A DNA stretch of 55,572 nt, counting the filler, from Asterionella formosa (taxonomy: Eukaryota), in assembly GCA_002256025.1 (NCBI GenBank). It is 5 parts of 5 records of this genome, joined end to end, with 100 filler letters (N's around TTAATTAATTAA, not from the genome) between each part and the next. Parts side by side here need not be neighbours in the genome. Positions count along the whole stretch, not along the records: positions 1 to 11,045 come from NKIB01008874.1; 4 more parts are not named here. One strand, written 5' to 3'. The notes beneath the pieces were generated by a model, which did not search any database, was not told the DNA's origin, and was given only the letters and a program-made list of their open reading frames with translations. Positions 5,560 to 44,546 of the stretch are shown one piece after another. Made by a program: the position numbers and the translations under genes. Positions within the stretch are counted from its first letter, which is position 1; each line of letters starts with the position of its first letter.

Positions 5560-5810
5560 CAAATGGCACAATGATACTAGCTAGAGCGGGAATTGCTGAA
5601 GGCAAGACACACCCAAAATGGTCTCTTGCCTGCGAGTACACATGTATACAAGAAGGCAAGTAGCCACCAAGAAGGGTATTGTTGAGGTAATTCACAAACT
5701 AGCTATTGTTGCGCCAGTTGCTTAGTACCTACTGCCCTCAAATAAAGCATAAATGACATTTTTAGTTTACTATAGCCCATCATATAAAATATATTTCATA
5801 TCTTCACATA
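5560..5810. repeat. Dispersed inverted-repeat (MITE-like) family, copy 1
   Basis: Core cgagtacacatgtatac.agaaggcaagtagcc.cc.agaagggtattgttgagg between TAGCTAG...AATTGC and G(C/T)AATT...CTAGCTA arms. Also found at 10890-11045 and reverse-complemented at 45310-45640. Confidence 0.75.
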
Positions 5811-6136
5811 AAATCTTGCCGAAGGTCCAATATTTCCCATCATTAGAATGAATCATTAACGCCAACAACATGACATTCAATGTACTACCATGTTCCAATG
5901 CCACACCACACCCAACACAATTGACAAGGCAGGTTGATTGTCATCGGCCATTGATTGTCATTGTTGGTTCATACCTTTTTATTTCCGTTTCATGCTTTGG
6001 TTGCTTAAAAACATCATCTCGAATTTTTCGATGCTTGTTACAATCATTCTTGTGTGACTATTTTTCATGCATATTTGGGGCCCCATCCATTTTTGATTTG
6101 GCTGCTTTCGCTCCTGATGTTGCTCGATGGTCCCTG

Positions 6137-6393
6137 TGTTGAAACTACAGTATTTGCATCCCCCAACTGTGCCGATAAGACAACAGGACGAGGGGAATGT
6201 TCACACAGAGTGGTTGAATTGATTGTAAACCAGATAATTAATTAAGGTGAGTATTCGATGTGGCAATCGAAGTGATGATCAGTTCTGTGTTGATGTGGCG
6301 CCCTAGCTAAGTGGCGTTTTTTCTTACTAAATTTGTGTTGGACCGTAGCCCATCTATTATCATGTACCATTGTTGTATGTTGGTTTCTTGACA
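6137..6393 (-). repeat. 3' LTR (257 bp)
   Basis: Direct repeat of 10376-10631, roughly 10% diverged by eye. Confidence 0.93.
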
Positions 6394-9300
6394 CAATCCT
6401 GTGATCCAATGAGCTGTCAGTCAAGAATGGATCAATGTTCAGGATTTGATCCCGAAACTTCTTGAATAATGACCCCTGGAGGGACTTTGTAAAAGAATCA
6501 GCCATCATATCGCCAGTTGGGCAACAATATGTGACTGACACCTCCTTGGAGGCAATATGTTCGGTAACAAAGAAGTACCGAATGTTAATATGGCGAGTCC
6601 GTTTACTGCTGGAGGAATGCCCATTATTTTCCAACAGCATGGCACTCTGGTTGTCCTGGTAGATAAGTGAGTCTGTAATATCATATCCCAGTGCTTGTTC
6701 GAGGAAATAGCGAGTCCAAAGACGACATGACATCATTGACACCCACCAAATCCCCTTCAGTGGAAATCCTTGTATTAATTTTCTGGCGAGTGGACATGGC
6801 ATATATCATTCCTTTCCAAGGGTCATTGCACCACCAGTGTGGCTTTTCATGTTGGAATGAACAGCAAATGATGCATCAATCCACCATTTGATAATCTGCA
6901 TGTTATCTGCTTCAAGGGTGAGGGGCATATGAATAGTGCTCCTGAGATATTTCATTACGCGGGCAAGCTTTTTATAGTCATCTGTATCTGGTCCCTTCAC
7001 TCGGGTACAGAGAAAAGCTACGGCGGTTTGTATTTCGGGACAAGCCCGTTTGTTTAGGAACAGAAGCTTGGCAACATTGTGATGAAACATGTCAGCCTGT
7101 TCCTTGTCAAGTAGAGTGGAACCAGTTCCATTAGTTTCAAAAAGTTGTCCTGCAGCTGGAGTGGCGGCCTCTCCATTCATCTCATCTGGAAGTTTTCCCA
7201 GCATCATTTTAGTTCCTTTGCATCTATGATGCTTGGCAACATTACTGATTCAATTGCCACTGTGGCTGGGTGAGCTGGATTCTTCCTTGGAGGTGTAATC
7301 TTGCTGTTTTCTTCCATCTGCACATCCTCTGCCCTTAATTGTGCCATTACGCTTTTTCGTTTCCATATTCATTGTTGTTTTCTTGTTCAGTCTGTTCTTC
7401 ATCAGGTTCATTTTCATATTCATTATTGTCATTGTCATATACTCCTGCAATGAGAGCGTTGGAGTCATTGACATTGGTATTATCGTCATATCCATGGTCA
7501 ATGTCATGATCATTGTTGGGGTTGTCATCATACTCATACTCATCATCATCATATCCATCATCAGAGTGATTTGGGTTATAGGATTCATCATTGCTGTCAT
7601 CATCGTCTGTGTGGACTAGCGGATTACCATCTCAATCAATAAATTCAAGAGGTGTGCCCATGCTATTGCCACCATTGCGGCAGGCAACGGCATGTACCCG
7701 ATCAATGACCTCATGTGGCATACTAGGTAGTTCCATCCAATGGTTTCTATTAAGAACACGACCAGTAGTGAGGTTGAGGAAATAGTATCCGCCTTGCTCG
7801 TTGCCTGGTGTGGGATGAAGGGCAATCGCTCCAGTGGTTGTTCGGGTGGCCATCGAGTTATCGTGTTCCTCATGGGTTTGCACGCACATATGCCCCAAAT
7901 TCAAGCTTGCAGTGCCTGGAATAGTTGATATGAGTTCCGACTATCATGGCTCGAGGACTAATGGTAGTGGATACTCCATCAATTGGTGGAAAGCTTTTAA
8001 GCCGAAAATTGCTGTAATATACCATTTCAATGGTATTTCGTGCTGGCATGCGTTTAAATGGGAGAGTGTTGTATACACATCGGGCATGGTCCTTAACCAT
8101 ACGGATGTGTCTTTCAATTTCTGGCACATGCTCTCCGTTTGACACAGTGTTGAATGTAATATTCATATCTGCGAGATCACCACGGAGCGATTCAAATTGG
8201 CCATCCAGTAAAGTACAAATATTGAGAATCCCCTTTTTATACAGCTGCTCTTTAGCTACATGCTTAATTGCAGCAAGGATTGCTTTATTTTGCTGCTTTT
8301 TCATCATCTCCGTAGTTCCGAATTTGATGTATTGGGATACTGTCATTAAAAATGCTATCTTGTTGACAAACATGATGTCTCCAGCAAGGACGATGCTATG
8401 GTATCGACTCATTATTTCTGCTGGGAAATTGACAGTGTAGGCCTCTACTCGGCCGTGTGGCTGCCCAGTGGACGGTTTTTCTTTTAAGGGATCCCACATC
8501 TGGCCCAAAAATGTTTTCTGCCGCAGCAATGTTGCTTCGATTGATTGGACAGTTGGTTAGTAGGTTGTTGTCAACAATTTTCATGAAGATGCGTGTCCTT
8601 GGTTGTCCTATCATTCTTTGGATTTTACGAGCTAGAATAGCACGGGAGTACTCATGGTTTGTGTAGCTAGACCGATTATCTCCTACTGTGTTGATTAGAG
8701 CAATGGCTTGTGCGCTGGCACTGGTTTCAATGAAGTACAGCCCTCGCTCAGATTCCTTAAATATTCTTGAACTCCCATCTGATTTGTGAACAATCAACTC
8801 ATTCCCGTTTGTGCTGTCATATGTGACTCTGTATCCCTTTTCCTTCACTCGGGATAAGGAGAGAATGTTTGCAATGCCATTGGGATGATACCACACTGTA
8901 CCATATCCAGGCAGATCGCCAACCATGTTGGTCCTAGTGACTCCAGCATTGCAATGTATATCCATGTGGGTGTCACCCTCACGTATGTTCCTTAGCAACC
9001 CAGCATTGTGAAACACATCCACAGTTGACTGGTTATCAAGAAGTGTTGGGAATACGCCCACCATCTGTGTCAATTTTTATTGCAATTCCGGTATGATGAT
9101 GCTGAAGGAATTGGAAATGTTGTTTGCCATCAAACTCTCCACCCTCCATACCGCCCATGAGCATTGTTGCTCCTGACTGGCGTTCCTCAGTGCACTCATT
9201 TGCATAATGCCCTTGTTTGCCGCACTTGTGACATGTTATGCTGACCCTGTCATGTGGCCCATTGCTTTTCTTTGTTTGCCCGTTGTTTGCAAGAGTGACT

Positions 9301-10375
9301 TCAGGATCAGTTGTATTATCATCAACATTTGTAAATGATACACCATCACTGGCAGGCCCCATTTGGCGCACAAGATTCCGTGACTCCTGCTTCCAATTGG
9401 TGAGAAGATGATATGCAGCAGTAACTGTAGTAGGATAATTATTCTGACCTTGCAAAAAGTCATTCTCCAGGTTCTCGATCGCACGACCGGTCAGCACCGA
9501 GGAGTAGGAAAGCAATGGCAACAAGGCACCGCCCCTGGACTTCCCTTTTTAATTCCTCTCTCATAGATGAGGTCATCGTTGACAGATTCTTTCCCCGCTC
9601 TGTGGCAAGGATTTTTCGATTCCTGGATCATTTCCAATAGACCTGCCACTGTGTTGAATCACGTCGACTAAGTTTTGGAACTGTTCTAAGTATGCTTGTG
9701 TTGTTGCAACCCGTCCTTGTGCGCATAGGTAGAATCGCCGCTTTGATTCATGCAGTGAGTGGGGGAGATATTTAATGGCTCTCGAAATTGTTGTATGCCA
9801 TGTCCTTAATGGCCTTCAATAGTGATAGTCCATCAACTGCACTCGACATAGTATCAAATGTATCCAGTGCCTCAATCTTCTGCCGCATGATGTTGGTACC
9901 CTGTCCCCACACCAGTGAATATAGAGTCTTGACATTCTCAGTAAGGTAGCTGCTTCTCTTGACAAACTCATCGACTTGCTTTTCCCAGATCCTTTCTTGA
10001 GTCCTGGTTGTGTTTTCAGGTGGGTCACTTGGTTAAGCCATAACTGGTAACTCCAGATTCTCAACAACCAACCGGATGTCCCCACCATACTTGTATGTCC
10101 TTCCAACGAATTCTCCAATCTCCTTTGTTGTCTTCATGAAGATATCTTACTGTCTGACATCAGAGCAGTCATAGACGTGGACTTTTAGGTTATCACACTT
10201 GCCCTCAAAGTTGGGCTGTCTTGGTATCATGGTCTTGTGGTACCCATACTTATGTTTTTTTGGTCTCCACTGATTCCTTCTTTTCCTTTGGTGGAGTGCT
10301 TGTATTGTCATCCCTGGGGCCATCGTTGTCACTGGTCCCCATTTTGCTGCTGTTACTTCAACCTTTAATTAATTA

Positions 10376-10631
10376 TGTTGAAACTACAGTATTTGCATCC
10401 CCCAACTGTGCCGATAAGACAACAGGATGAGGGGAATGTTCACACAGAGTGGTCGAATTGATTGTAAACCAGATAATTAATTAAAGTGAGCATTCAATGT
10501 GGCAACCGAAGTGCTGATCAGTTCTGTGTTGACGTGGTGGCACCCTACGTAGCGCTTTTTCTTATTTAATTTGTGTTGGACTATAGTCCATCCATCATCA
10601 TCTACCATTGTCGTATGTAGGTTTCCTAGCA
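10376..10631 (-). repeat. 5' LTR (256 bp)
   Basis: Direct repeat of 6137-6393; lies upstream of gag on the minus strand. Confidence 0.93.
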
Positions 10632-10649
10632 CCCTGCTACTCAAACCAA

Positions 10650-11045
10650 AAATTGACTGCCGAAAAATCCAATGTACTTCGCAACAATTATATCAAAGTC
10701 TGTTTGGCCTTTAGTTGAGACCAAAATCTAATGCATTCAAGATTTAAATGCCTTTCTTTTTCCTTCCTCCGAAGATGTTTACAAACAGAAATAACATCAA
10801 ATATGTATATTGCCCCTATATAAGAATTACTAAGAGACACCAAAAATTACTTTGACACCCACAGTTCTCATCGAAAAGCAAGACGATATGTAGCTAGGGT
10901 GGGGATTGCTGAAGGCAATACGAGTGCCATCCCAGTCGAGTACACATGTATACGAGAAGGCAAGTAGCCGCCGAGAAGGGTATTGTTGAGGCAATTCCCG
11001 CTCTAGCTATCGTCGCGTCATTCGCTTACCTACTGCCCACAAATT
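10650..11045. repeat. Dispersed inverted-repeat family, copy 2, truncated by the contig end
   Basis: Same core as 5560-5810. Upstream motifs aaaattgactgccgaaaaat and aaaaattact are also seen near 345-445 and 45890-45995. Confidence 0.7.
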
Positions 11046-11145
11046 NNNNNNNNNNNNNNNNNNNNNNNNNNNNNNNNNNNNNNNNNNNNTTAATTAATTA
11101 ANNNNNNNNNNNNNNNNNNNNNNNNNNNNNNNNNNNNNNNNNNNN
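11046..11145. other. Artificial contig linker (N, TTAATTAATTAA, N)
   Basis: 100-nt spacer with stop codons in all six frames. Confidence 0.98.
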
Positions 11146-15200: not shown

Positions 15201-18200
15201 CTAAATATATGATGACCACCATTTCCCACGTTGAGTCATTATGCTAAGTGCTTCATTACCATTTTCTAGAACGCCAGCATTGGATGAGTGCTTTTGCATA
15301 GCAGATTCAATGGCAACTTTTCCACCAACATTGGAAATCCTCAACTGATTGTGGTCATTATTATTTGCCAAGTTACAAAGTGCTCGACAACCATGCTTTT
15401 GCACATTAGCATTGTCTAAATGAAACTTCATCGCAGACAGAATAATAGTGATACCTCCTTTTGCAGCAATCGTCACCTTAATATTGTCATTATTCAAAGC
15501 CAAGTTCATAAGTGCTGCACAACCACACTCTTGCACATTAGCATTGTCTAAATGAAACTTCATCGCAGACAGAATCTTAGTTATACCTCCTTCATGAGCA
15601 ATCGTCTCCTTGTTTCTGTCATTATTATTAACCAAGTCCATAAGTGCTCCACAACCATAGTTTTGCACATTAGCATTTGATAAATGAGTCGCCATTGCAG
15701 ACAGAATCGTAGTTATACCTCCTGCTTCAGAAATCGCCACCTTGTTATTGTCATTATTATTATCCAAGTTCATAAGTGCTCCACAACCATACTCTTGCAC
15801 ATTAGCATTGTATAAATGAAACTTCATCGCAGACAGAATCGTAATTATACCTCCTGCTTCGGCAATTGCCACCTTGATATTGTCATTATTCAAAGCCAAG
15901 TTCATAAGTACTGCACAACCATAGTGTTGCACATCCGCTATCAAGGAATGAGCCTTCATCGCAGACAGAATAAAAGTGATACCTCCTTCTGCAGCAATCG
16001 TCACCTTGATATTGTCATTATTCAAAGCCAAGTACATAAGTGCTCGACTACCATGCTTTTGCACATTAGCATTGTCTAAATGTGCATTCATCGCAGACAG
16101 AATCGTAATTATACCTCCTGCTTCAGCAATTGTCACCTTGTTTCTATCATTATTCTCAGCCAATCTCAAAAGTGCTCTACAACCATACTCTTGCACATAA
16201 GCATTATATGAATAAATCCTCATTGCCGACTGAATCGTAGTTATACCTCCTGCTTCAACAATCGTCATCTTGTTCTTATCATTCAAAGCCAAGTTCATCA
16301 GTGCTCCTAAACCATATTCTTGTACCTTAGCAGTTGATAAATGAGTCGCCATTGCAGACAGAATCGTAGTTATACCTCCTGCTTCAGAAATCTTCATCTT
16401 GTTCTTGTCATTCAAAGCCAAGTTCATAAGTGCTCCACAACCATACTCTTGCACATTAGCACTGCCTAAATGATAATTCATCGCAGACAGAATCCAAGTG
16501 ATACCTCTTGCTGCAGCAATTGTCACCCTGTTGTTGTCATTCATAGCCAAGTTCAAAAGTGCTCCACAACCAAAGTGTTGCACATCCGCTATCAAGGAAT
16601 GAGCCTTCATTGCAGATAGAATCGTAGTGACACCTCGTTCTGCTACAACAATCTTACCCCTGTTGTCGTCATTATAAGCCAAGTTCCCAATTATTCCACA
16701 ACCATATTGTTGCACAATAGCATTGTCTAAATGAAACTTCATCGCAGATAGAATTGTAGTGATACCTCCTGCTTCAGCAATTGTCACCCTGTTATTGTCA
16801 TTCATAGCCAACTTCCAAAGGGTTCTACAGTTATATTCTTGCTCATCCGCATTGGATTCATAAGTCTTCATCCCATATAGAATCAAAGTGATATCTTCTG
16901 CGACAGCACCAAACATGTTTTTCAAGTTGACAGAGATAAATATGACTTGATTTTCATAATTTGCCAAATCACAAAGCACACGCTTTTTGAGCGCAAAACG
17001 CCAAGTTCTGGATTTCAGTACGTCCTTATCAAACTCTTCCAAGCAATGGCGCATCATACCTTTTCTTTCCAGATCTTCAACAAATTCTTTAAAATCCTTC
17101 AGCTTGTTGAGGTCGAGCCCAGACTTCTTGTATTCCTTCAGACCCTCAGCAGGTGATGGTTTATTCACTTCATCAAGAAAATTCTTGACATTGAGCACAA
17201 CATCACCTGGAAGCGTGGGAATAGGAAACCCACATGCTTTTGCCAATCCCCCAGCCGCATTCCATAGCATTGCAACAGTCACTCCAACAGCACAAACCTT
17301 GGCCCCTATCTCTGCAAACTTGTTGATTTGATTCTGATATTTTTTCGTTTCGATTTTGTATGAGACAACTGGTTGGAGCGTCAGCCCACACAGCAACTGC
17401 AGATATTCTACTTCAGTTGTCCTACCACTGAAAAGTCGCAGGCAACATTCAAATAACTCCCGAGCTCGCTCAGAAATTTCTACCATTTCCTTCACTGCAC
17501 CGCGAGCTCGTTTTCTCAATGATTGCTCGGGCATCAATGTGCTCTTGAATGTTTTAAACTCATCAGCAGTGAGAAGTTTAAACATGTATGGGAATTCCAC
17601 CTCTTCAAGTTGGTCCATCAAATCAGGGATTTGGCCGTTGCTCAACTGTATGTATTGGAGCGTCACAGACTGGGCATGCAGCAAACTATTATTTTCAAGT
17701 GCGAGAACCTTGGTTTCATCCATGACATCCTTGGTTTCATCAGAGATTTGGGGCACGACATCCTTGATTTCATCCAGCACGGATTTATTGACACGCAGTT
17801 CACCTGCGTCAGCACCAAAACTGTAGTTGATAGAGATAAATGTGACTTGCTTTTCATAATTTGCCAAATCAGTAAGCTCATGCCTTTTAAGCGCAGACTG
17901 CCAAGTTCTGGATTTCAGCGCTTCCTTGTCAAACTCTTCCAAGCAATGGCGCATCATACCTTTTCTTTCCAGATCTTCAACAAATTCTTTAAAATCCTTC
18001 AGCTTGTTGAGGTCGAGCCCAGACTTCTTGTATTCCTTCAGACCCTCAGCAGGTGATGGTTTATTCACTTCATCAAGAAAATTCTTGACATTGAGCACAA
18101 CATCACCTGGAAGCGTGGGAATAGGAAACCCACATGCTTTTGCCAATCCCCCAGCCGCATTCCATAGCATTGCAACAGTCACTCCAACAGCACAAACCTT

Positions 18201-18905
18201 GGCCCCTATCTCTGCAAACTTGTTGATTTGATTCTGATATTTTTTCGTTTCGATTTTGTATGAGACAACTGGTCGGAGCGTCAGCCCACACAACAACTGA
18301 AGATATACCACTTCAGTTTTCCTACCACTGAAAAGTCGCCAGCCTTTTCTGAAAGCAGTGGCTGTCTCCTTGTTCTTCAAAGAGTCAAGAAAGTCGCGGC
18401 AACATTCAAATAACTCACGAGCTCGACCAATAACCTCTTCTGTTTCCTTCACTGCACCGCGAGCTCGTTTTCTCAATGATTGCTCGGGCATCAATGTGCT
18501 CTTGAATGTTTTAAACTCATCAGCAGTGAGAAGGTTAAACATGTATGGGAATTCCACCTCTTCAAGTTGGTCCATCAAATCAGGGATTTGGCCGTTGCTC
18601 AACTGTATGTATTGGAGCGTCACAGACTGGGCATGCAGCAAACTATTATTTTCAAGTGCGAGAACCTTGGTTTCAACCATGACATCCTTGGTTTCATCAG
18701 GGATTTGGGGCACGACATCCTTGATTTCATCCAGCATGGATTCATTGTCATCAAATTTATTAATAATATACTTCCAACCATGATAAGTAGCTTGTATGCC
18801 ATACTCATTCGTAGTTGAAGCATCATGGGTAGGGGCGTATGAAACTGCAGACAATGACATGTTTGAATTGATCTCGTTGCTTGCTTTGGTTATTTGTGAT
18901 TGCAC
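15201..18905 (-). CDS. Armadillo-repeat protein with a tandemly duplicated ~300-aa N-terminal domain
   Basis: 1234-aa ORF (first ATG at 18860). It has 12 clear ARM repeats of 42-43 aa plus one degenerate one (IAEAGGITTILSAM..H..NANVQ..GCGALMNLA) at about 15260-16900. DNA duplication of about 16925-17780 versus 17825-18737. Confidence 0.88.
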   Translation of the reverse strand: MQSQITKASNEINSNMSLSAVSYAPTHDASTTNEYGIQATYHGWKYIINKFDDNESMLDEIKDVVPQIPDETKDVMVETKVLALENNSLLHAQSVTLQYIQLSNGQIPDLMDQLEEVEFPYMFNLLTADEFKTFKSTLMPEQSLRKRARGAVKETEEVIGRARELFECCRDFLDSLKNKETATAFRKGWRLFSGRKTEVVYLQLLCGLTLRPVVSYKIETKKYQNQINKFAEIGAKVCAVGVTVAMLWNAAGGLAKACGFPIPTLPGDVVLNVKNFLDEVNKPSPAEGLKEYKKSGLDLNKLKDFKEFVEDLERKGMMRHCLEEFDKEALKSRTWQSALKRHELTDLANYEKQVTFISINYSFGADAGELRVNKSVLDEIKDVVPQISDETKDVMDETKVLALENNSLLHAQSVTLQYIQLSNGQIPDLMDQLEEVEFPYMFKLLTADEFKTFKSTLMPEQSLRKRARGAVKEMVEISERARELFECCLRLFSGRTTEVEYLQLLCGLTLQPVVSYKIETKKYQNQINKFAEIGAKVCAVGVTVAMLWNAAGGLAKACGFPIPTLPGDVVLNVKNFLDEVNKPSPAEGLKEYKKSGLDLNKLKDFKEFVEDLERKGMMRHCLEEFDKDVLKSRTWRFALKKRVLCDLANYENQVIFISVNLKNMFGAVAEDITLILYGMKTYESNADEQEYNCRTLWKLAMNDNNRVTIAEAGGITTILSAMKFHLDNAIVQQYGCGIIGNLAYNDDNRGKIVVAERGVTTILSAMKAHSLIADVQHFGCGALLNLAMNDNNRVTIAAARGITWILSAMNYHLGSANVQEYGCGALMNLALNDKNKMKISEAGGITTILSAMATHLSTAKVQEYGLGALMNLALNDKNKMTIVEAGGITTIQSAMRIYSYNAYVQEYGCRALLRLAENNDRNKVTIAEAGGIITILSAMNAHLDNANVQKHGSRALMYLALNNDNIKVTIAAEGGITFILSAMKAHSLIADVQHYGCAVLMNLALNNDNIKVAIAEAGGIITILSAMKFHLYNANVQEYGCGALMNLDNNNDNNKVAISEAGGITTILSAMATHLSNANVQNYGCGALMDLVNNNDRNKETIAHEGGITKILSAMKFHLDNANVQECGCAALMNLALNNDNIKVTIAAKGGITIILSAMKFHLDNANVQKHGCRALCNLANNNDHNQLRISNVGGKVAIESAMQKHSSNAGVLENGNEALSIMTQRGKWWSSYI

Positions 18906-19047
18906 GTGTGATGAAACGTTTTCTTTGTGGGCGTGTTTGTTATTCTTGAGACTCTACCATCTGTCGTTGAATTCTACATGCAAGGTACAAATTCATTCAG
19001 TGATCAAAAGCATGCCGGAACTTTGGTATATAACATACCGAAAACCT

Positions 19048-22178: not shown

Positions 22179-22278
22179 NNNNNNNNNNNNNNNNNNNNNN
22201 NNNNNNNNNNNNNNNNNNNNNNTTAATTAATTAANNNNNNNNNNNNNNNNNNNNNNNNNNNNNNNNNNNNNNNNNNNN
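22179..22278. other. Artificial contig linker
   Basis: N, TTAATTAATTAA, N; 100 nt. Confidence 0.98.
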
Positions 22279-27324: not shown

Positions 27325-28672
27325 TTACTTCAAATCATACACCCCGATAAACTTGTTGCGAAGGGAGCCCAGATACAATTTGCTACCATTGACGGTTACG
27401 CCAGTCAATAAACTTATATCCTTTCCTTCGGGGTCTTGAAGTAGTCTCGTAATCCCGCCCGGTTTGGTCTCGTCACCAGGAAAGTACTCGTACACAGCGC
27501 CGTAAGCCACAATTTGCGGCGAGAGTGATCTAGGAAGAAGTAGCAAGAGTACCCGAAAGAAACGATCAAAAGGACTAGGAATTGCATAGATCAATTTCAT
27601 CACTGGTAAAGCTGCGGACGGAACGGGAACATAGCAAAGGCCTGTCTCGTGGCTGCAATCGTGGCCGTCTGGGTAACCAGTTAGTTTGTCAACAGCTACA
27701 AATGTAGAACCATTTGTCAAAGAGTACTTGAGCACACGACTTTGGAAGGTTTCAGAAACAACAATGTACGTCTCATCCTTGTCGACACCGATTCCATTAG
27801 CAAACCAGAGGTCATCCATGAGCACTTTAACCTCATCAGTGGCTGGATCATACTCCAAAACTCGCCCAGTTCGCCGCCCTCGAATAAGATCGACCTTGGA
27901 CGTGTAAAGAGAATCCCAGGTCCTTGTCCCAATCCGATCTGGAGCCAATTCTGTTGCGTCACTAAAGTAAACCTTCCCTGTCTTCGGTCCTACTTTCAGG
28001 TCATTGCAGTAGTGAATTTGGGACCATTGTCCATCCACTTTCACTCTCGAGGCTACCAATTCCACCTTGGCTCGTGGATCTTGTGGATTCTTGACTCGAA
28101 TCAGACCCAAAAGGGTGTCTGCAATGTACAAGGTTCCGTCCGGAGTAAACGCTCCACCCAACGGACGGCCCATCCCTAGATTTATGATTTCGGTTACCGT
28201 AGCCATGACGGTCACTCCGTCTGCCTGTGTTTCTAGGTTGGTTAGTTGGACGAGCTTGGCTTCTTCAGTCAACACAAAAATCTCTCCTTGATTGCCCACG
28301 ACAACAGTTTCGGGACCAATCATGAGTGGCTTCCTGCCTTCTTCGCGCCGTTCAAATATCTTTTGGAGTTTCCCGTCTGTAGAATCACAAATATAAAATG
28401 ATGCCTGTGAGAGACAGGAATACCAGAATCGAAGGAGGGGAACAGCAGTAATAGACACGAATATACTCACGCTTCAAGCGAAGAGAGTCGTTGTCAAAAT
28501 CTATGGAGGAATAGACAGGACGCTCATTCATTGGAACATCCACAGGCGGCCCATGGGGCAACACCCATTTGCGGATCAATCTCGACAAATTAAATCCAAG
28601 CACTGATGCGAGAATGATATATTTGAATGTCGACCGCGGCCAATTTTTTGTGGCAGTGTATGAAGAGGACAT
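27325..28672 (-). CDS. Strictosidine synthase-like/APMAP (SMP-30/gluconolactonase beta-propeller) protein, paralogue 1; intron 28377-28470
   Basis: Motifs GPE, GRPLG, YFSDA, GRVLEYDP, LWFANG, LTGYPDG and LYLGSL. GTGAGT...ACAG intron joins an N-terminal TM exon in frame. Confidence 0.9.
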
Positions 28673-30381: not shown

Positions 30382-31712
30382 CTACTTCAAGTCATACACC
30401 CCAATAAACTTGTTGCGAAGGGAGCCAAGGTACAATTTGTTGTCATGAACAGTCACTCCAGTCAAAGTGTGTATATCAATTCCCTTTGGATCCTGGAGTA
30501 TTCTTGTAGTCTCTGCAGGTTTAGTCTCATCACCAGGGAAGTACTCATACACACCACCATATGGTACAATGTCTGGGGCAATAGATCTAGGAATGAGCAT
30601 CAATAGCACCCGCAGAAATTGGTCCAAAGGAGTTGGAAGTGCAAATATATAATTCATCAATCGCAATGCTGCCGAGGGAACAGGTACATAGCAAAGGCCT
30701 GTATTGTGGTTGCAATCATTGCCATCTGGATAACCAGTGAGCCTGCCAAGAACAACGGATTTTGAACTATCTGAGAAAGTATACTTGAGTACCTGACCTC
30801 GAAAGGACTCGGAAACTACTATAAAGCTTTCGTCCTTATCAACCCCGATTCCGTTAGCAAACCAGAGGTCATCCATAAGCACTTTGACCTCGTCCGTGGC
30901 TGGATCATACTCCAAAACACGCCCAGTTCGCCGCCCCCGCACAAAATCAACCTTTGACGTGTAAAATGTATCCCAGGTCCTTGTCCCAATCCGATCTGGA
31001 GCCAATTCTGTTGCGTCACTAAAGTAAACCTTCCCTGTCTTTGGTCCCACTGTCACATCGTCACAGTAGAGAAGTTGGGACCAATTTCCATCTACTTTCA
31101 CTCTCGAGGCTACCAATTCCACCTTGGCTCGTGGATCTAGTGGATTCTTGACTCGAATCAGACCCAAAAGGGTGTCTGCAATGTACAAGGTTCCGTCCGG
31201 AGTAAACGCTCCACCCAACGGACGGCCCATCCCTAGGTTCATAACTTCGACAGCCGTAGCCATGACGGTCACTCCGTCTGCCTGTGTTTCTAGGTTGGTT
31301 AGTTGGACGAGCTTGGCTTCTTCAGTCAACACAAAAATCTCTCCTTGATTGCCCACAACAACAGTTTCGGGACCAATCATGAGTGGCTTCCTGCCTTCTT
31401 CGCGCCGTTCAAATATCTTTTGGAGTTTCCCGTCTGTGAAATCATAAATAGGAGTTTGTGAGCGACACGCGCAGAATTGAGGGGAATGGCAGTAGTAGAC
31501 TCGAAAAACGCACGTTTCAAACAAAGAGAGTCGTTATCAAAATCGATGGAGGAATGGATAGGACGCTCATTCATTGGAACATTCACAGGGGGCCCATTGG
31601 GTAAGAGGACAGAGATAATGGTTTGAGACAACCCCCACAGATGATACCCAACCAATAGAAGGGTGATGTGTCTGAAAGGGGACAGCGTTCTCCCCGAGTT
31701 GGAGGTGGACAT
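30382..31712 (-). CDS. Strictosidine synthase-like/APMAP protein, paralogue 2; intron 31434-31513
   Basis: Same motifs and same intron position (GTGCGT...ACAG) as paralogue 1. Confidence 0.9.
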
Positions 31713-32306: not shown

Positions 32307-33311
32307 TCATACGCACGCGCAGCAAGGACAAATTACTTCGTGACAGTCAATCAGAAGCACCTCCAGAACTCCATTCGTGAGTGCGCAAATCTCAGGTGCC
32401 ATTTCGCCAGTCAGTTGATTCGTTTCAAAAAACAGCCCAGCTGTGTTGGTACAATATATTTTGGTTAGCAAAGAAATGGATTCGACGAAGCAAACTTTTC
32501 CAAATTTTGCACTTACACGCGAACTCCAAGTGGGACAATGACCTAGGAAACGTTCCAGAAATTGCATTGTTCGAGACACTAAGTTGTATCACGTTTGCCA
32601 ACAAACCGAGTTCAGAAGGCAAGCTGCCCACAAATCTGTTGCTGCCAAAGAGCAAGTTTGTAAGGGAAGTAAGGGCTCCAATCTGAGTTGGAATGGTACC
32701 GCTGAAGTTATTGTAATCCGCCTGGAAATCTTGAAGCTTGCTCAAATTTGCTATCGAGGATGGAATCTTTCCGGTTAACTTGAGCGAACCCAGGTAGAGA
32801 ACGACTAAGTCTGACAAGCTCCAGAGCCAATCAGGAACTTCTTGATGAGCCAACTTGTTCTCCCCAAGCGTCAAATCCGACAATTTAGAGAGTCTAGCTA
32901 GTTCACTAGGAATCCAACCAGTAAACTTATTGCCACTGATAATCATTGCGGTCAAAGTATTTTCCAACATGCCAAATGTGACAGGGATTGTCCCAGTCAT
33001 GAAGTTCTTATTCACGTTTAATTTTTCCAATTTTGATTTTCCAATATCGGCTGAGATACTTCCAGTCAACTTGTTGAATTCCAAGCTCAACACGGTCAGT
33101 TTTGGATGGTTCCAAAGATCGCTAGGTATCGTACCATTCAGCTTGCAATTCTGTAAATGTAATTCAGTCAGAAAAGGTAGATTCGACAGTTCGGATGGTA
33201 TGCTTCCACCAAAGTCATCATCATCTTTGCACTCCAGACTTATCACTTGAAGTGTGTGCAACAAAGCAAGCTCGGAGGGAATAGTTCCCTTAAGCCCATT
33301 TCTTGACTGCT
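32307..33311 (-). CDS. Leucine-rich-repeat (plant-type LRR) protein, 5'-partial; intron 32441-32516
   Basis: About 11 repeats of LxxLxLxxNxLxGxIPxxL. GTAAGT...CACAG intron leads to a typical diatom LRR end, PEICAL...IDCHEVICPCCAC. Confidence 0.88.
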
Positions 33312-33411
33312 NNNNNNNNNNNNNNNNNNNNNNNNNNNNNNNNNNNNNNNNNNNNTTAATTAATTAANNNNNNNNNNNNNNNNNNNNNNNNNNNNNNNNN
33401 NNNNNNNNNNN
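33312..33411. other. Artificial contig linker
   Basis: N, TTAATTAATTAA, N; 100 nt. Confidence 0.98.
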
Positions 33412-42959: not shown

Positions 42960-44446
42960 TATAAAACACTCCTGGCAAAATGATAAAATGGCACTCCAGT
43001 GAGTATTTTTGTTAGACCATCAGAGCAGTTAGCCTTACCAGGTTCATGTGCAACACACGCTGACCCGCATGCACAAGCCTCGCGACCGACACTTGTGATA
43101 AGCAATTGCATTATGCCTTTTATTCAATGTTATCAGGCCTAGTCACATTCTTTACCACACTCGCGTTTTCTCCAAACACATTTGCGGCACCATCAATGGG
43201 CACTCCCATCATACGTAACTTGTATCTGAAGGCGTCATTCATTTCAATAGCAATTTTCATCGCCACGAACTCACTCCCAAAAGTTGACGTTTCGACAGTA
43301 TTTTGCCTTTTGGAATACCACCTCACAGCAGCACCATTCAAGAATATCAATACCCCTGTTGTCGATCTACGGGTAGCGAGGCAAGTCGCATGCGCAGCAT
43401 CACAAAAGATGTTGATTTGTACCTCATTCCCAAGAGCCTCTGGTGCACCTGGTGGAATCAACTCTACAGAATCAGGGTAGAATTCTTTCCAATCAGCAAC
43501 ATCATACTAATCGACTGTAATCCAATCCCTATATGCTGGATCAAGTACAAGCCGTGACCTCAGATGCCCTTTCACATAACCAAATATGCGGAGCACTGCC
43601 TCCATGTGTCCCTCACGCGGAGCATTCCTAAATCTCGACATGAGTGCCACCGAATGCATCAAATCAATTCGCGCTAACTCAGTCGCCCATTGTAGGATCC
43701 CAATATAGCTAGTGTACAAGGATACATCATCCTCACTCAATAGGGGGCTGACATCAATCTCAGGATGGTATCCAGCTGGTAAGGCGGGTGAGGACGCCTT
43801 TCGGCATAACTTTTCATCCTCTTCTTCTTCAATAATCGGAATAGCCTTGGTGAGATAATCCTCTGCTGACATTGACCACGCCAATGACCCATCACCAAAT
43901 TGATACTGGCCAACCATTGCGCCTAGATAGCGGCAAGGTGTGGTCCCTGGATCTTCAACAACCTTAAGTGTAAAATAACAAGCTAATTCTTTGACTAACT
44001 CATCAGCTGCTGCTGAAATGAGCATAAAATCATCGACATAGACCAATGCATATTCATAGTATGCTGAGCCATCAAGTTTTGTTGCTTTCCTCAACCACAG
44101 ATCTGGATCAGCCTCACAAGCATAGAAATGCAAGTGGTCACATAACACAGAAGCCAGATGTGCCCGAAAAGCGGCACCAGCAGACTTCAGACCATAAAGA
44201 GCACGAACGATCTTCAGCACACGACCTTTCAGCGGGCCAAATTCGTCCCCTGCCACAACATAATAACGCTCTGTCACAGGCGCTGTCAAATAAGCATTCC
44301 CAATGTCTGTCAGCCGTAGATTTAATCCATTTAGACCGGCAACCAACAAGGCAATGCGAATTGTCTCCCTAGAAACGACACTTGAATATGTGATTGCCTT
44401 TGGGGGGTCAGTCCTACTATGACCTCCTGCCACATACCTAGCCTTG
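42960..44446 (-). mobile_element. Ty1/copia RT-RNase H fragment, degenerate and cut by the contig end
   Basis: DIGNAYL, RALYGLKSAG, YVDD; RNase H FCDAAHA, STFGSEF, GENASV. One in-frame stop at 43507. Confidence 0.93.
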
Positions 44447-44546
44447 NNNNNNNNNNNNNNNNNNNNNNNNNNNNNNNNNNNNNNNNNNNNTTAATTAATT
44501 AANNNNNNNNNNNNNNNNNNNNNNNNNNNNNNNNNNNNNNNNNNNN
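44447..44546. other. Artificial contig linker
   Basis: N, TTAATTAATTAA, N; 100 nt. Confidence 0.98.

Follow-up and report, generated by a model that had tools for sequence, protein, structure and literature searches.

Evidence for probable self-primed reverse transcription in a Ty1/copia lineage of diatoms

In the diatoms studied so far, the main class of mobile DNA is formed by copia elements. A Ty1/copia lineage with a decayed member in Asterionella formosa very probably primes reverse transcription with the first 13–15 nt of its own RNA, by a Tf1-like fold-back and cleavage, and not with a host tRNA, as judged from comparison of the element with its relatives. The features that lead to this reading are observed directly: the primer-binding site (PBS) pairs with a segment of the LTR, it lies flush with the LTR CA, the two sides of the duplex carry matched changes, the paired run ends sharply after TCA, CCA or TTA, and a hairpin in U5 covaries.

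The element and its remains

The window, i.e. the whole stretch of 55,572 nucleotides that was analysed, consists of five unrelated contigs joined by N44-TTAATTAATTAA-N44 spacers. The element spans 10631–6137 on the minus strand (Table 1), and its two LTRs, which have TG...CA ends, are 88% identical overall in alignment. The gag-pol region, as read from decayed frames, has the copia order with integrase before RT, and a PF00098 match at 9036–9548 corresponds to its zinc knuckle. Frameshifts and stops interrupt the region and the RT core is missing; full-length homologs of the element carry RVT_2 (PF07727). The assignment to Ty1/copia is thus given by the LTR pair with TG...CA ends, the 5-bp duplication and the domain order gag-PR-INT-RT-RH, with the RVT_2-type RT known from homologs. 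Because the RT core is missing, the window copy is a dead, decayed element that is unable to prime now, and the mechanism described below belongs to the lineage.

Table 1. Coordinates of the element and of the contig spacers in the window
Feature	Position	Strand	Remarks
Target-site duplication CAGGG, 5' copy	10632–10636	minus
5' LTR, TG...CA	10376–10631	minus	256 bp; aligned to 3' LTR
TCA of initiator-like site	10487–10489	minus	predicted +1 is 10486
Predicted self-primer, 13 nt (10486–10474), plus T10473	10473–10486	minus	T10473 can pair with last LTR base
U5 hairpin	10406–10425	minus	3 bp, bulged U, 4 bp, 5-nt loop; ~30 nt before LTR end
Predicted primer-binding site	10363–10375	minus	adjoins LTR CA; not TGG-type; complement of predicted RNA 5' end
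Decayed gag-pol	6242–10342	minus	zinc knuckle, protease, integrase, RT remnant, RNase H; from translations
PPT-position motif before 3' LTR	6394–6407	minus	common to relatives; not purely purine
3' LTR	6137–6393	minus	257 bp
3' LTR copy of primer motif	6247–6234	minus	one change from 5' LTR motif
Target-site duplication CAGGG, 3' copy	6132–6136	minus	5 bp
Contig spacers N44-TTAATTAATTAA-N44	11046–11145, 22179–22278, 33312–33411, 44447–44546

Divergence between the LTRs is uneven. Their U3 parts (10631–10487 and 6393–6248) are ~82% identical and their R-U5 parts (10486–10376 and 6247–6137) 97% (Fisher p 5e-5), possibly as a result of recombination or conversion between related copies. The pol frame continues into the 3' LTR (6393–6300, minus strand), and in several families and in P0005 a W-x-x-V peptide, with basic residues after it, is encoded by U3. 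Outside the LTRs, the element is flanked by a 92-nt direct repeat (86%) at 5633–5724 and 10937–11028, which is probably an older repeat.

Complementarity between the primer-binding site and the LTR

No TGG tRNA-type site follows the 5' LTR. On the minus strand, ATAATTAATTAAAG at 10376–10363 is the exact 14-nt complement of CTTTAATTAATTAT at 10486–10473, which stands directly after TCA; each of the two occurs once in the window, and the 3' LTR retains the motif with a single change. These observations agree with an earlier sequence-only reading of this DNA, which had equated the PBS with the whole of 10376–10363. The pairing stands and its extent has to be corrected. Since the LTR pair and the CAGGG duplication fix the boundary, the LTR ends at 10376, and the first A of the 14-mer is therefore the last LTR base. 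The PBS proper is 13 nt long (10375–10363) with its partner at 10486–10474, and the fourteenth pair of the duplex uses the last A of the LTR.

When the LTR was shuffled 5000 times and compared with the PBS, no run of 12 or more pairs was obtained (the maximum, 11, occurred in 2 of 5000). The predicted 5' RNA of the window element folds with the primer–PBS helix (z −2.9), which closes a loop of about 96 nt; at −11.7 kcal/mol the duplex is weak for its length.

Conservation and covariation in related elements

A total of 107 loci were examined, namely 35 of the close family, 20 of a distant family (gag about 30% identical) and those 52 of 79 metagenome loci that have at least 600 bases upstream. 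A locus was kept if it displayed at least 13 of 15 Watson–Crick pairs starting at a CA. This level was reached by 22 of the 35 close-family, 17 of the 20 distant-family and 37 of the 52 metagenome loci, and by one of 156 shuffled controls, none of which reached 14. A stricter test of run length gave 18 of 33 loci versus 1 of 165 shuffles. Two loci with 13 of 15 pairs each (L201 and L232) were removed as chance, leaving 74. By eye, no TGG site was seen in any of the 31 loci that failed the cut. Most of these run off a contig end, carry deletions or have decayed, and about eight from metagenomes cannot be assessed because no LTR end is recognisable in them. The family of the window element is itself decayed, and its duplex is perfect in only one of seven copies.

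The 74 kept loci contain 25 PBS types that differ at three or more positions. A PBS type forms on average 13.8 of 14 pairs with its own LTR, a figure that partly reflects the selection for at least 13 of 15, versus 6.3 with the other LTRs (at most 11 in 600 pairs). Read as direct repeats, the two sequences agree at a mean of only 5.6 of 14 positions across the types, so palindromy is not the cause of the pairing. The worry that an AT-rich, partly palindromic motif weakens the match is gone in the relatives, most of which are non-palindromic yet paired.

Compensatory changes between the LTR motif and the PBS had been proposed as a check on the pairing, and they are found on both sides of a conserved duplex. 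In alignment A2, which comprises 22 of 28 main-class sequences (L166, L189, L213 and L227 were excluded for their divergence, L049 and L193 because they nearly duplicate others), 14 of the 15 duplex pairs have changed on both sides, and none of 500 shuffles reaches the observed values. Pairing in this alignment is 95%, compared to 38–46% in slid controls. Matched changes also occur inside families (L126, L129, L005/L009). In eight elements (the window element, L114, L125, L131, L132, L165, L169 and L189) the LTR pair gives the LTR end independently of the duplex, which begins at that point; L114, the LTRs of which are 99.4% identical, has a perfect non-palindromic duplex. A PBS flush with the LTR end, its complement in the LTR and covariation of the two, by which a self-primed element is recognised, are thus all present.

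In the predicted folds, the mean pair probability of the primer–PBS helix exceeds 0.8 in all 25 types. The loop measures 94–112 nt in the main class and from 41 to 131 nt between families. One metagenome subgroup (L206, L208, L214, L216, L217, L218, L221 and L203) has kept the duplex with a loop of 41–52 nt and a primer of 14–15 nt.

Boundaries of the duplex and the predicted start site

The duplex has sharp ends. PBS positions 1–14 are paired in 23–25 of the 25 types and position 15 in seven, and the paired run is preceded by TCA (19 types), CCA (four) or TTA (two) in every type. The predicted primer is 14 nt long in 20 types, 15 nt in four and 13 nt in the family of the window element. Because the pair with the last A of the LTR is missing in five of the 25 types, the comparison points to a primer that stops one base short of it, flush with the CA.

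The sequence-only reading had placed the start of transcription with the help of a TCAHW-type initiator reported in diatoms. Such a proposal is indeed published: according to the accessible part of Kadono 2015 (PMC4686930), TCAH(+1)W was put forward from visual inspection as a diatom initiator-like motif in which +1 is the base after TCA, and this base coincides with the first paired base, 10486. Since 68% of 80-nt promoter windows contain the motif, what carries weight is that the two boundaries coincide.

The RNA contigs compared come from relatives that are 80–99% alike. Three of them that span the PBS stop at 10466–10469; since contigs break at variants, these stops are given no weight. 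Loose ends at 10376 occur in four of four RNA runs and agree with the LTR boundary, as seen in assembled contigs only. Two further RNA contigs that start near 10482–10486 were considered as marking the start of the element and rejected, since they read on into sequence that flanks a truncated LTR fragment of the L013/L014 kind.

A bulged-U hairpin in U5

A hairpin with a bulged U lies 29–37 nt from the LTR end. All seven of its pairs form in 19 of 25 main-class sequences and six of seven in three; in the other three the hairpin is placed elsewhere, and ties in the search favoured the 29–37 nt position. In alignment A2, all seven pairs have changed on both sides, with the qualification that the structure was derived from the same sequences, which favours it over slid controls. 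The hairpin may hold the duplex for cleavage. A duplex of the Tf1 type downstream of the PBS was not found (7.1 versus 7.1 in shuffles). Nor was the three-duplex Tf1 'pretzel' recovered; the flanking upstream 3-bp helix fits only 10 of 19 sequences.

Host tRNAs and other copia lineages of the genome

A search of host tRNAs, another of the proposed checks, gave no fit to the 3' ends or to internal parts of 64 distinct tRNAs, a partial set (63 of 3876 candidates scored) that may miss the cytosolic initiator tRNA. Five PBS types compared with these tRNAs match a single base of the 3' end and 6–8 bases internally (8–9 with G-U).

Among 20 control RVT_2 loci of other copia lineages, only five of which have an LTR pair, none contains a 13-bp self duplex. 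Three other copia elements, L241 (C14326), L252 (C15389) and L239 (C902), carry tRNA-type sites. A TGGTTATGAG-type site in a control locus with an LTR pair matches the anticodon arm of tRNA-Met over 9 bp, and presumably represents the half-tRNA type. One control locus, with an unconfirmed LTR boundary, matches tRNA-Ile(AAT) over 10 bp at its 3' end.

In a separate copia clade (12 rows, 100/100), the LTR end is followed immediately by a 12-nt palindrome whose two halves carry matched changes; it lies about 2.9–3.0 kb upstream of RT (loci L234 in C1239, L248 in C241, L250 in C4696, L240 in C971, L251 in C3694 and L237 in C13733). In two loci with a full LTR pair, the palindrome has no partner in the LTR. 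It resembles the site of fungal GalEa elements and may represent a second tRNA-free priming mode.

Lineage and hosts

RTs of 27 loci from the group of the window element form one long-branch group (100/100) apart from 21 other copia rows. Of these loci, 24 have the duplex in the same locus and three are from the family of the window element; all were gathered by likeness to the query, so that the grouping is partly built in. Among the matches listed, the protein relatives with a eukaryote name all come from diatoms (Fragilaria, Epithemia and Fistulifera), one row bears the label of a bacterial metagenome bin, and the atlas clusters are Bacillariophyta. The names Phaeodactylum and Thalassiosira do not appear among the best 120 of 872 RT matches. 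The lineage is likely diatom-specific.

Proposed mechanism and alternatives

By analogy with Tf1, transcription would start at the first paired base, 10486, and the RNA 5' end would fold back across the loop onto the PBS. The RNase H of the element would then cleave the RNA immediately on the 3' side of this duplex, near 10474/10473, as in Tf1, creating a 3' end that RT would extend into U5. During plus-strand synthesis the PBS would be copied anew from the primer, and primer and PBS sequences would therefore be coupled.

A variant of this scheme, which we consider unlikely, is that the primer is element RNA acting in trans, either the 5' end or the 3' R copy of a second packaged genome, so that priming would be independent of tRNA and involve no fold-back. 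Covariation cannot separate cis from trans, and both the variation of the loop from 41 to 131 nt between families and the failure to find a Tf1-type duplex downstream of the PBS are compatible with it. However, the cis fold is the predicted minimum-energy structure, the loop is tight within the main class, and Tf1, the only worked-out precedent, is described as intramolecular in the accessible part of PMC10085805.

Slightly less probable still is that the duplex is a structural helix of the 5' UTR, with a role in packaging, in the control of translation or in shielding the site, and that the primer is some other host RNA or a tRNA fragment. The cleavage is a prediction, the tRNA set is partial, and other diatom copia use internal tRNA matches (L241), all of which leaves room for such a primer. 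Seven or more unrelated A/T-rich PBS sequences (families A–G) would nevertheless each need a primer in one host, the metagenomes add 18 types, and a structural helix need neither end flush at the LTR CA and the initiator nor hold a fixed length of 14 nt. A chance match of A/T-rich palindromes or contamination with the TTAATTAATTAA linker, suggested by the 10-nt palindrome in the window PBS and its resemblance to the linker, is negligible in view of the shuffles and the non-palindromic relatives, and a linker artefact is ruled out by the position of the site ~670 bases inside contig C8874 and its presence in six further copies.

Relation to known systems

Self-priming as described here would be a further case of a known mechanism, in a Ty1/copia with what is probably an RNA design of its own; the reading is supported, not proven. 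The Tf1 precedent invoked by the sequence-only reading is experimentally established: in the parts of PMC10085805 and PMC4600332 that are accessible, it is Tf1 for which self-priming has been demonstrated, and the Tf1/sushi group and Tj1 are taken to share it. Like the element here, Tf1 and Tf2 of S. pombe, Tj1 and Tf1/sushi elements have a PBS that adjoins the LTR CA and complements the predicted RNA 5' end; theirs matches no tRNA (PMC10085805, PMC4600332), and here none of the 64 tRNAs compared fits. The differences concern both lineage and structure. Tf1/sushi elements are Ty3/gypsy chromoviruses with integrase after RT-RH, and the element here has the copia order; the lineage thus works like Tf1 and is not a Tf1/sushi member. 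The Tf1 primer is 11 nt long, and the predicted primer here is 13–15 nt and accompanied by the bulged-U U5 hairpin in place of a recovered pretzel.

For Ty1/copia, too, self-priming has a precedent at the level of prediction. According to the accessible part of Neumann 2019 (PMC6317226), self-priming was predicted from sequence for the plant TAR copia lineage, and an earlier proposal for Houba and Osr-1 is cited there. Plant TAR elements (Houba, Osr-1) are likewise copia with a PBS complementary to the LTR, recognised by the same kind of test (PMC6317226); they have other hosts, are also a matter of prediction and are likened to the present element by description. The diatom CoDi-like elements belong to the other main copia branch than TAR, as far as the available parts of PMC2774666 and PMC5445492 describe it.

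Fungal GalEa elements with a Conserved Hairpin Site (Donnart 2017, PMC5445492, accessible part) similarly lack a tRNA PBS and have an A/T-rich, partly palindromic site in which pairing includes the last A of the LTR. In GalEa, however, the site pairs with a partner 12–41 nt downstream, and the search of the authors for a complement in the LTR gave none, whereas the present element has its partner in the LTR and its relatives are mostly non-palindromic.

As described in the main text of Maumus 2009 (PMC2806351, accessible part), the diatom CoDi elements (CoDiI, CoDiII; Blackbeard, Surcouf) share with the present element the copia order, short TG...CA LTRs and an intact size of 5–6 kb. The sequence-only reading had mentioned a similar proposal for a diatom copia, but the accessible main text of this paper contains none of the terms priming, tRNA, Tf1 or self. 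Statements on priming of CoDi elements are likewise absent from the accessible parts of PMC2806351 (main text), PMC7017206, PMC2774666 and PMC3587641. No report of self-priming in a diatom copia was found in the accessible literature, subscription journals, theses, Repbase and GyDB being outside the search.

We lean towards the view that self-priming arose in this large diatom copia lineage separately from Tf1/sushi and from plant TAR, with a 14-nt primer set from the host initiator to the integrase CA end, a bulged-U U5 hairpin replacing the pretzel, and a copia RNase H cutting an RNA-RNA duplex. If self-priming is true, the mechanism, which is proven only in Tf1, would have arisen once more and probably independently, and a copia would for the first time be open to a precise test, with a predicted start base, primer length and cut site. 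The elements would presumably be freed from the supply of host tRNA and from silencing by tRNA fragments at the PBS, and it would be clear why PBS-based annotation misses them. One diatom genome would also run self-primed, palindrome-site and tRNA-primed copia together. In diatom assemblies, the complementarity of LTR and PBS can serve as a marker of LTR ends and of predicted start sites.

Other sequences in the window

A second, very divergent copia RT fragment (PF07727), which has a long branch in the RT tree, lies at 43507–44490 on the minus strand. Host-like frames lie at 15201–18953, 27325–28473, 30382–31533 and 32425–33363; they include those of a long ARM-repeat protein, which has 132-nt repeats, and of an LRR protein, as well as a strictosidine-synthase-like frame that is duplicated.
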